From assembly GCF_003334785.1 (NCBI RefSeq), contig NZ_QOWV01000011.1: a DNA stretch of 64,000 nt; one strand, written 5' to 3'. The translations under genes and the position numbers were made by a program. Positions 1,381-37,593 of the stretch are shown one piece after another. Source of the stretch: Escherichia coli. Lineage in GTDB: Bacteria > Pseudomonadota > Gammaproteobacteria > Enterobacterales > Enterobacteriaceae. Below the pieces are notes generated by a model. It was not told the origin of the DNA. It did no database searches and saw only the letters and a list, made by a program, of their open reading frames with translations. Within the stretch, counting starts at the first letter, position 1; every line of letters begins with the position of its first letter.

Positions 1381-1923
1381 ATGTTTACCTTTATCAAAAA
1401 AGTCATCAAAACCGGCACGGCGACCTCGTCTTATCCGCTGGAGCCGATTGCGGTTGATAAAAACTTCCGTGGTAAGCCAGAGCAGAACCCGCAGCAGTGC
1501 ATCGGCTGCGCGGCCTGCGTCAATGCCTGCCCGTCAAACGCCTTAACGGTTGAAACTGACCTCGCCACAGGAGAGCTTGCCTGGGAGTTTAATCTTGGGC
1601 ACTGCATCTTCTGTGGACGCTGCGAAGAAGTCTGCCCGACGGCGGCGATCAAACTGTCGCAAGAGTACGAACTGGCGGTGTGGAAGAAAGAAGACTTCCT
1701 GCAACAGTCCCGCTTCGCGCTGTGCAACTGCCGCGTCTGCAATCGTCCTTTCGCCGTCCAGAAAGAGATCGACTACGCCATTGCGCTGCTTAAGCACAAC
1801 GGCGACAGCCGCGCGGAAAACCACCGCGAAAGCTTTGAGACTTGCCCGGAATGTAAGCGCCAGAAATGCCTGGTGCCGTCCGACCGTATTGAACTGACTC
1901 GCCATATGAAAGAGGCCATCTGA
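1381..1923 (+). CDS. hycF: Formate hydrogenlyase iron-sulfur subunit HycF
   Basis: 180 aa ORF with two CxxCxxCxxxCP ferredoxin motifs; operon position. Confidence 0.95.
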
Positions 1924-27487: not shown

Positions 27488-27580
27488 GGTGAGGTGGCCG
27501 AGAGGCTGAAGGCGCTCCCCTGCTAAGGGAGTATGCGGTCAAAAGCTGCATCCGGGGTTCGAATCCCCGCCTCACCGCCA
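27488..27580 (+). tRNA. serV: tRNA-Ser (anticodon GCU), long variable arm
   Basis: 93 nt ggtgaggtggccgagaggctgaagg...gaatccccgcctcaccgcca; anticodon loop ctGCTaa. Confidence 0.95.
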
Positions 27581-27583
27581 TTT

Positions 27584-27660
27584 GCATCCGTAGCTCAGCT
27601 GGATAGAGTACTCGGCTACGAACCGAGCGGTCGGAGGTTCGAATCCTCCCGGATGCACCA
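27584..27660 (+). tRNA. argV: tRNA-Arg (anticodon ACG), copy 1
   Basis: 77 nt gcatccgtagctcagctggatagag...ctACGaa...cctcccggatgcacca, 3 nt after serV. Confidence 0.95.
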
Positions 27661-27776
27661 TATTCTCCGAAATCTTCAGCAATGAAGGTATCGAAGAGGT
27701 AGCGGAATTAACCGCAGGCACTAGGGATGATAACGTTGCTTTAGCAACGGCCCGAAGGGCGAGCCGCAAGGCGAGT

Positions 27777-27795
27777 AATCCTCCCGGATGCACCA
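27777..27795 (+). repeat. tRNA-Arg 3'-end fragment in array spacer
   Basis: aatcctcccggatgcacca identical to last 19 nt of tRNA-Arg, no 5' half. Confidence 0.8.
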
Positions 27796-27858
27796 TCTCT
27801 TAATTGATATGGCTTTAGTAGCGGTATCAATATCAGCAGTAGAATAAGTTTTCCCGAT

Positions 27859-27935
27859 GCATCCGTAGCTCAGCTGGATAGAGTACTCGGCTACGAACCG
27901 AGCGGTCGGAGGTTCGAATCCTCCCGGATGCACCA
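27859..27935 (+). tRNA. tRNA-Arg (anticodon ACG), copy 2
   Basis: Identical 77-nt sequence 275 nt downstream of copy 1. Confidence 0.95.
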
Positions 27936-29252: not shown

Positions 29253-30836
<1,584 letters not shown>

Positions 30837-30845
30837 CAGAAAAGA

Positions 30846-30917
30846 AAAAGGCCACTCGTGAGTGGCCAAAATTTCATCTCTGAATTCAGGGATGATGATA
30901 ACAAATGCGCGTCTTTC
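30846..30917 (-). ncRNA. micA: MicA (SraD) small regulatory RNA
   Basis: Minus strand reads GAAAGACGCGCATTTGTTATCATCATCCCTGAATTCAGAGATGAAATTTTGGCCACTCACGAGTGGCCTTTTT, with terminal hairpin and U-tract, in the gshA-luxS spacer. Confidence 0.9.
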
Positions 30918-30985
30918 ATATACTCAGACTCGCCTGGGAAGAAAGAGTTCAGAAAATTTTTAAAAAAATTACCGGAGGTGGCTAA

Positions 30986-31501
30986 ATGCCGTTGTTAGAT
31001 AGCTTCACAGTCGATCATACCCGGATGGAAGCGCCTGCAGTTCGGGTGGCGAAAACAATGAACACCCCGCATGGCGACGCAATCACCGTGTTCGATCTGC
31101 GCTTCTGCGTGCCGAACAAAGAAGTGATGCCAGAAAGAGGGATCCATACCCTGGAGCACCTGTTTGCTGGTTTTATGCGTAACCATCTTAACGGTAATGG
31201 TGTAGAGATTATCGATATCTCGCCAATGGGCTGCCGCACCGGTTTTTATATGAGTCTGATTGGTACGCCAGATGAGCAGCGTGTTGCTGATGCCTGGAAA
31301 GCGGCAATGGAAGACGTGCTGAAAGTGCAGGATCAGAATCAGATCCCGGAACTGAACGTCTACCAGTGTGGCACTTACCAGATGCACTCGTTGCAGGAAG
31401 CGCAGGATATTGCGCGTAGCATTCTGGAACGTGACGTACGCATCAACAGCAACGAAGAACTGGCACTGCCGAAAGAGAAGTTGCAGGAACTGCACATCTA
31501 G
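30986..31501 (+). CDS. luxS: S-ribosylhomocysteine lyase LuxS
   Basis: 171 aa [14 protein letters not shown]..., HTLEH metal motif. Confidence 0.97.
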
Positions 31502-37511: not shown

Positions 37512-37593
37512 GTAGGCATGATAAGACGCGCCAGCGTCGCATCAGGCATTGTGCACAGAACGGCGGATGCGGCAAAAACGCCTTATCCGCCCG
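37512..37593. repeat. REP cluster, two units
   Basis: gtaggcatgataagacgcgccagcgtcgcatcaggca and cggcggatgcggcaaaaacgccttatccgcccg. Confidence 0.85.

Follow-up and report, generated by a model that had tools for sequence, protein, structure and literature searches.

The small RNA MicA, formerly known as SraD, has been under study since 2001. In E. coli, transcription of its gene has been shown to be strictly sigma-E dependent (Udekwu and Wagner 2007, PMC1851643), and an AT-rich element at the micA promoter has been noted in the same work (PMC1851643, Figure 3 legend). MicA functions through an Hfq-dependent block of translation initiation, which is followed by decay of the mRNA, and beyond ompA its further targets include lamB, ompX and phoPQ (PMC4618604); the A/U-rich linker between its two hairpins is the published Hfq-binding site (PMC4618604). 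The RNA has also been connected with the processing of transcripts of the neighbouring luxS gene. A sigma-S-type promoter of luxS, called P1, is located at -332 from the luxS ATG (Udekwu 2010, PMC2956633), and the long transcripts from P1 are converted into a shorter species in a process that needs both MicA and RNase III (PMC2956633). The luxS R3 species overlaps MicA by 14-15 nt (PMC2956633).

In this paper, we have analysed the spacer between gshA and luxS in a 64,000-nt stretch of E. coli chromosomal DNA (the window; coordinates are positions in it unless a K-12 position is given). A reading made earlier from the letters of this DNA, hereafter the original prediction, had placed a 72-nt RNA matching MicA on the minus strand at 30846-30917, and had named the fit to the Rfam MicA covariance model and a sigma-E type promoter just upstream of 30917 as the points to be checked. 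We have compared the locus with MicA of E. coli K-12 and with its counterparts in other Enterobacterales, and have weighed several alternative roles for the RNA and for the hairpin at its 3' end.

Results

The micA gene and its neighbours

When the whole window was scanned with Rfam 15, positions 30846..30917 on the minus strand gave a full-length match to the MicA family RF00078 with a score of 83.9 bits (E = 1.4e-11), against a gathering score of 41; the match covers model positions 1-75 of 75, is not truncated and lies far outside what chance would give. Its coordinates are identical to those of the 72-nt RNA claimed in the original prediction, and the proposed check against the covariance model thus came out in its favour over the full length of the RNA. 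The minus strand of this interval reads GAAAGACGCGCAUUUGUUAUCAUCAUCCCUGAAUUCAGAGAUGAAAUUUUGGCCACUCACGAGUGGCCUUUU. Over the 73 nt of the micA gene, and likewise over all 149 bp of the gshA-luxS spacer, the sequence is 100% identical to that of E. coli K-12, and the K-12 MG1655 record carries an ncRNA, micA (b4442, 73 nt), in the luxS-gshA spacer and on the strand opposite to these genes. Of 5426 complete E. coli genomes, 5424 have the spacer, and many complete genomes of the species match the 221 bases around it with 100% identity. Nothing in the window sequence speaks against the identity of the element, which is MicA itself rather than a relative, and as such is already known. It is almost certainly the micA gene of E. 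coli with the sigma-E promoter, the terminator, the omp targeting and the luxS processing that go with it in K-12. As the copy is identical to the reference MicA, it carries little weight as a discovery; it is rather a positive control, in which a 72-nt RNA gene was placed to the exact base from sequence alone.

The two neighbouring genes were assigned by NCBIfam equivalog models, and the coordinates of all features are collected in Table 1. Since both gshA and luxS are encoded on the plus strand and MicA on the minus strand, the predicted orientation of MicA, antisense to both neighbours, is correct, and so is the predicted spacer length of 149 bp (30837..30985), which follows from the end of gshA at 30836 and the start of luxS at 30986. 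The hairpin, however, begins 13 nt past the gshA stop codon (30837..30849), and not 10 nt as had been stated; the annotated 3' end of MicA is 8-9 nt from this stop codon. Further out, yqaB and yqaA are found upstream of gshA, and emrB downstream of luxS on the other strand. In a RefSeq E. coli record annotated by PGAP (NZ_CP025842.1), the identical spacer is located at 1558..1706 of the locus taken from it, and no feature is annotated between gshA and luxS, which indicates that micA can be absent from standard annotation. There is thus an annotation gap for MicA, whose gene is annotated in the K-12 record but not in the inspected PGAP record.

Table 1. Coordinates of micA, its parts and its neighbours in the window
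Feature	Position	Strand	Basis or remark
gshA (glutamate-cysteine ligase)	29280..30836	+	TIGR01434, 916.5 bits; RefSeq annotation; convergent with micA
MicA 3' end, K-12 Term-seq	2814877(+) = window 30842	-	76 nt; PMC7815308 supplementary file 1
Rho-independent terminator of MicA, 7-bp GC-rich hairpin and U-tract	30842..30867	-	terminator scan
micA, K-12 annotation	73 nt, reaching 30845	-	b4442
MicA sRNA gene (micA, formerly sraD)	30846..30917	-	72 nt by Rfam boundaries
A/U-rich linker AAAUUUU between the hairpins, MicA nt 44-50	30868..30874	-	sequence
Stem-loop 1 (CAUC-C-CUG / CAG-A-GAUG), MicA nt 24-43	30875..30894	-	Rfam consensus structure, MFE fold
Target-pairing region, MicA nt 7-25	30893..30911	-	RNAduplex with K-12 ompA leader
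Sigma-E type promoter of micA	30924..30951	-	-35 tGAACTC 30951..30945, 16-nt spacer, -10 TCTGA 30928..30924, +1 G 30917
AT-rich element upstream of the -35 box (AATTTTTTTAAAAATTTTC)	30952..30970	-	sequence; T-run conserved in alignment A1
luxS (S-ribosylhomocysteine lyase)	30986..31501	+	NF002602, 349 bits; divergent from micA

Conservation of the locus in Enterobacterales

Homologous loci were collected by one DNA-pattern scan of species-representative genomes with a MicA seed pattern, which returned 120 loci. They belong to Escherichia, Citrobacter, Enterobacter, Klebsiella, Yersinia, Serratia, Pantoea and Erwinia, and further to Dickeya, Pectobacterium, Edwardsiella, Hafnia, Rahnella, Tatumella and other genera. 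The search pattern corresponds to MicA nt 5-27, and the invariance of these nucleotides in the collected loci therefore holds by construction. With MicA taken as the plus strand, the order gshA(-)-MicA(+)-luxS(-) is kept in every one of the 120 loci that is long enough to contain both neighbours. In some species (L025, L080 and L119 in alignment A1), the MicA seed is longer by one ATC unit and reads GTTATCATCATCATC.

RNA structure and terminator

The minimum free energy (MFE) fold predicted for MicA consists of two hairpins and a largely unpaired 5' part (-20.5 kcal/mol, z = -2.7). It agrees with the Rfam consensus structure, in which model positions 1-23 are unpaired; the MFE fold differs by a weak helix of 4 bp within this segment. 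The second hairpin, GGCCACTCACGAGTGGCC at 30867..30850 (-), comprises MicA nt 51-68 and is followed by TTTTTCTTTT, so both the GC-rich hairpin and the U-tract that had been predicted to end the RNA are present. This is the one terminator-like site that the terminator scan found in 30500..31300, and it was found on the minus strand only. Furthermore, in each of the 111 sequences compared, 6-7 of the 8 nt that follow the stem on the MicA side are T.

In the alignment of 112 MicA sequences, 98.5% of the cells form standard pairs, compared with 29-52% after a shift of the 3' partners by 1-3 columns; for stem-loop 1, 95-100% of the cells are paired. The innermost pair of the terminator shows compensatory change (A-U 91, U-A 12, G-C 3), the terminator stem being otherwise invariant. 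Among the 14 stem pairs of MicA, 11 show a single standard pair type and 9 never vary, and changes on both sides occur in two, a count that was reached by 136 of 500 shuffles. With most of the stem positions invariant, covariation lends the structure thin support, and as an independent proof it is weakly informative. In the two Dickeya loci (L030 and L059, alignment A1), the terminator hairpin has a longer insert, GGCCACCCGATGACAATCGAGTGGCC.

The sigma-E promoter

A sigma-E type promoter, expected on the minus strand shortly before 30917 if the element is micA, is indeed located there in the form of tGAACTC-N16-TCTGA at -34..-7 relative to the micA +1. It is the sole motif of this kind in the window: the pattern GAACT-N17-TCTGA has 1 match on the two strands of the 64 kb, where 0.07 would be expected. 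The promoter primer used in PMC1851643 ends at the base matching 30918, which confirms the +1 at 30917. In 111 distinct Enterobacterales sequences from about 110 species, the -35 box (xGAACTx or GAAACTT) and the -10 box are kept at a fixed distance from the +1, and the -10 box is TCTGA in 81 of the 111 and TCTNA in most of the others. Judging by the identical K-12 sequence, micA is probably expressed in the present strain too, and in a sigma-E-dependent manner.

Pairing with the ompA leader

The 5' seed of MicA, GAAAGACGCGCAUUUGUUAUCAUCAUC, is identical to that of K-12 and is mostly single-stranded; its last four bases make up the 5' side of stem-loop 1. As ompA lies outside the window, its leader was taken from K-12, and in silico (RNAduplex) a duplex of -23.1 kcal/mol is formed between MicA nt 7-25 and positions -22..-5 of this leader, spanning the Shine-Dalgarno sequence. 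Shuffled seeds gave -13.9 +/- 2.4 kcal/mol with ompA, and 3 of 500 equalled MicA. The pairing matches the published mode of action (PMC4618604).

Other features of the window

A tRNA cluster at 27488..27935 (+), upstream of yqaB, consists of a tRNA-Ser(GCU) gene and two tRNA-Arg(ACG) genes. In K-12, on the other hand, four tRNA-Arg(ACG) genes (argV, argY, argZ and argQ) follow serV, and the two copies against four indicate that the window is not from K-12; the difference in copy number is probably due to recombination between the repeats. A match to Rfam naRNA4 (RF02564, nucleoid-associated ncRNA 4 / CssrE) is located at 37515..37592 (-) and scores 72.2 bits (gathering score 59.5). A tRNA with the anticodon CAU is found at 59889..59961 (+) (Rfam tRNA, 73.8 bits), which from its distance to micA would correspond to K-12 ileY.

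Discussion

Alternative roles of the hairpin and of MicA

The original prediction had also stated that the hairpin probably ends gshA transcription, in which case 30850..30867 would work as a bidirectional intrinsic terminator for micA and gshA, a reading compatible with the MicA gene itself. The hairpin follows the gshA stop at a short distance, 13 nt here and 8-27 nt in almost every one of 111 Enterobacterales sequences, and throughout these 111 it is the first strong structure met by a polymerase leaving gshA. Its plus-strand form also folds stably (-16.3 kcal/mol in a 61-nt context), the 'primary' gshA 3' end of K-12 Term-seq, 2814861(-) or window 30858, falls within it (Adams et al. 2021, PMC7815308 supplementary file 1), and Udekwu reports no evidence for a polycistronic gshA-luxS message (PMC2956633). 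However, the tail that follows the stem on the gshA strand is AAAAUUUC, which is not a U-tract; across the 111 sequences this side has 0-4 T in 8 nt, with AAA at its start in 99 of them, compared with 6-7 T on the MicA side, and no plus-strand terminator for gshA was found by the terminator scan in 30500..31300. The mapped end at 30858 is, moreover, in the loop of the hairpin and not 7-9 nt past the stem; in the same Term-seq table the luxS end lies 6 nt and the micA end 8 nt beyond the respective stem (PMC7815308). Under a different growth condition, the 3' end given for this strand is at 2814914(-) (window 30805), within the gshA ORF (PMC7815308), and luxS P1 transcripts, which start at -332 inside gshA, cross the hairpin into luxS (PMC2956633). 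The two strands therefore differ in what follows the stem (UUUUUCUU on the minus strand, AAAAUUUC on the plus strand), and 3' ends just downstream of the stem are not seen on both strands in the published K-12 Term-seq data. A search of the literature on bidirectional terminators and sRNAs in E. coli found no micA/gshA case. On balance we consider termination in both directions unlikely: the hairpin is the canonical terminator for micA only, and the statement on gshA is weakened by the plus strand without a U-tract, by the read-through from P1 and by the 3' end in the loop, though some role of the hairpin at the gshA 3' end is possible. It could be, although we think it improbable, that the gshA 3' end is made not by termination but by MicA-guided cleavage, e.g. 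by RNase III, of a duplex between MicA and transcripts leaving gshA, which would explain an end inside the loop at 30858. If this were true, sigma-E envelope stress would directly tune the 3' end formation and stability of gshA mRNA, and hence glutathione synthesis, besides its effect on luxS.

Another view is that the main role of MicA is cis-antisense control of the luxS 5' UTR, of the gshA 3' end or of both through RNase III, with the trans regulation of omp genes being secondary. Any plus-strand transcript across the spacer is complementary to MicA by construction, and the geometry of the spacer guarantees that MicA can pair in cis, with full complementarity, with the longer luxS 5' UTRs; the P1 start corresponds to G 30654 inside gshA, preceded by TCTATGAT. 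In addition, luxS R3 requires MicA and RNase III (PMC2956633), a gshA-strand 3' end within the region complementary to MicA would fit cleavage of a duplex, and the opposite-strand arrangement is kept in all the examined loci, although conserved synteny by itself is no proof of a function in cis. Against this view, conservation in MicA is highest in the 5' seed, which pairs with ompA, an observation that is not independent, as most of this segment belonged to the search pattern. The trans targets have been established by compensatory mutations (reviewed in PMC4618604), and the LuxS protein was unchanged upon MicA overexpression (Udekwu, PMC2956633). We hold a mainly cis-acting MicA to be rather implausible. 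Far less credible still, to the extent that we give it next to no weight, is the absence of any RNA gene, with the spacer holding just a gshA terminator and a luxS promoter and leader, or else a small protein. An ATG-initiated ORF of 48 codons (30773..30919, minus strand) does overlap the micA region, and the inspected PGAP-annotated RefSeq record leaves the spacer without any feature, but the covariance-model score is far over its threshold, the ORF extends antisense into the gshA coding sequence, K-12 annotates an ncRNA and Term-seq detects the MicA 3' end (PMC7815308). As a small-protein gene the 48-aa ORF can be rejected, for its ATG ends at the mapped +1 (G 30917 is its third base), which leaves the start codon outside the RNA.

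Several observations on transcription around the hairpin may be added. The Term-seq end at 30805 (+) is strong and lies 31 nt before the gshA stop; neither this end nor that at 30858 (+) resembles a canonical intrinsic termination site. A Rho termination region of K-12 at 2815245(+), window about 30474 on the minus strand, is antisense to gshA and ~370 nt past the MicA terminator (Adams et al., supplementary file 2, PMC7815308), which suggests that read-through of this terminator, or transcription from another antisense start, is ended there by Rho. On the plus strand, a sigma-70-like promoter, ATGATA-18-TATACT at 30895..30924, is located inside and antisense to micA. It was rejected as a chance match, because such matches occur as often as expected (1 found, 0.9 expected) and because it is off the published luxS 5' ends (P1 and R3).

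Proposed mode of action and comparison with known systems

Under the preferred reading, in which the element is micA as in K-12, sigma-E RNA polymerase would start at G 30917 from a promoter within the luxS leader region, and would stop at the GGCCACU-CACG-AGUGGCC hairpin and its U-tract, yielding an RNA of ~72-76 nt. Hfq would then bind the RNA at its A/U linker and its 3' U-tail; both are present in the sequence, while the binding itself, and thus Hfq dependence in the present strain, is presumed from published work on the K-12 RNA of identical sequence. The single-stranded 5' part of MicA would pair with the translation-initiation regions of the ompA, lamB, ompX and phoPQ mRNAs, and the pairing would block ribosomes and trigger mRNA decay, so that less outer-membrane protein would be synthesized under envelope stress. 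MicA, being perfectly complementary to long luxS 5' UTRs, would also guide their processing by RNase III. As with Hfq dependence, we expect target repression and luxS processing to operate here on the strength of published work on the same sequence in K-12.

Two described RNAs resemble MicA in part. SraG, encoded between rpsO and pnp, is likewise an sRNA in a short spacer opposite two co-oriented genes and antisense to the leader of the downstream gene (PMC5029454), but its sequence and targets are unrelated to those of MicA. RybB, the other sigma-E- and Hfq-dependent sRNA acting on omp mRNAs in enterobacteria, shares with MicA the sigma-E promoter, the 5' seed, the Rho-independent terminator and the repression of omp mRNAs (PMC1804206, PMC4618604); it belongs, however, to a different sequence family and a different locus, and is absent from the Rfam matches of the window. 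The closest system is MicA of K-12 (SraD, RF00078, b4442), with the same sequence, the same neighbours in the same orientation, the same sigma-E promoter, two hairpins and terminator, and the element itself shows no differences from it.
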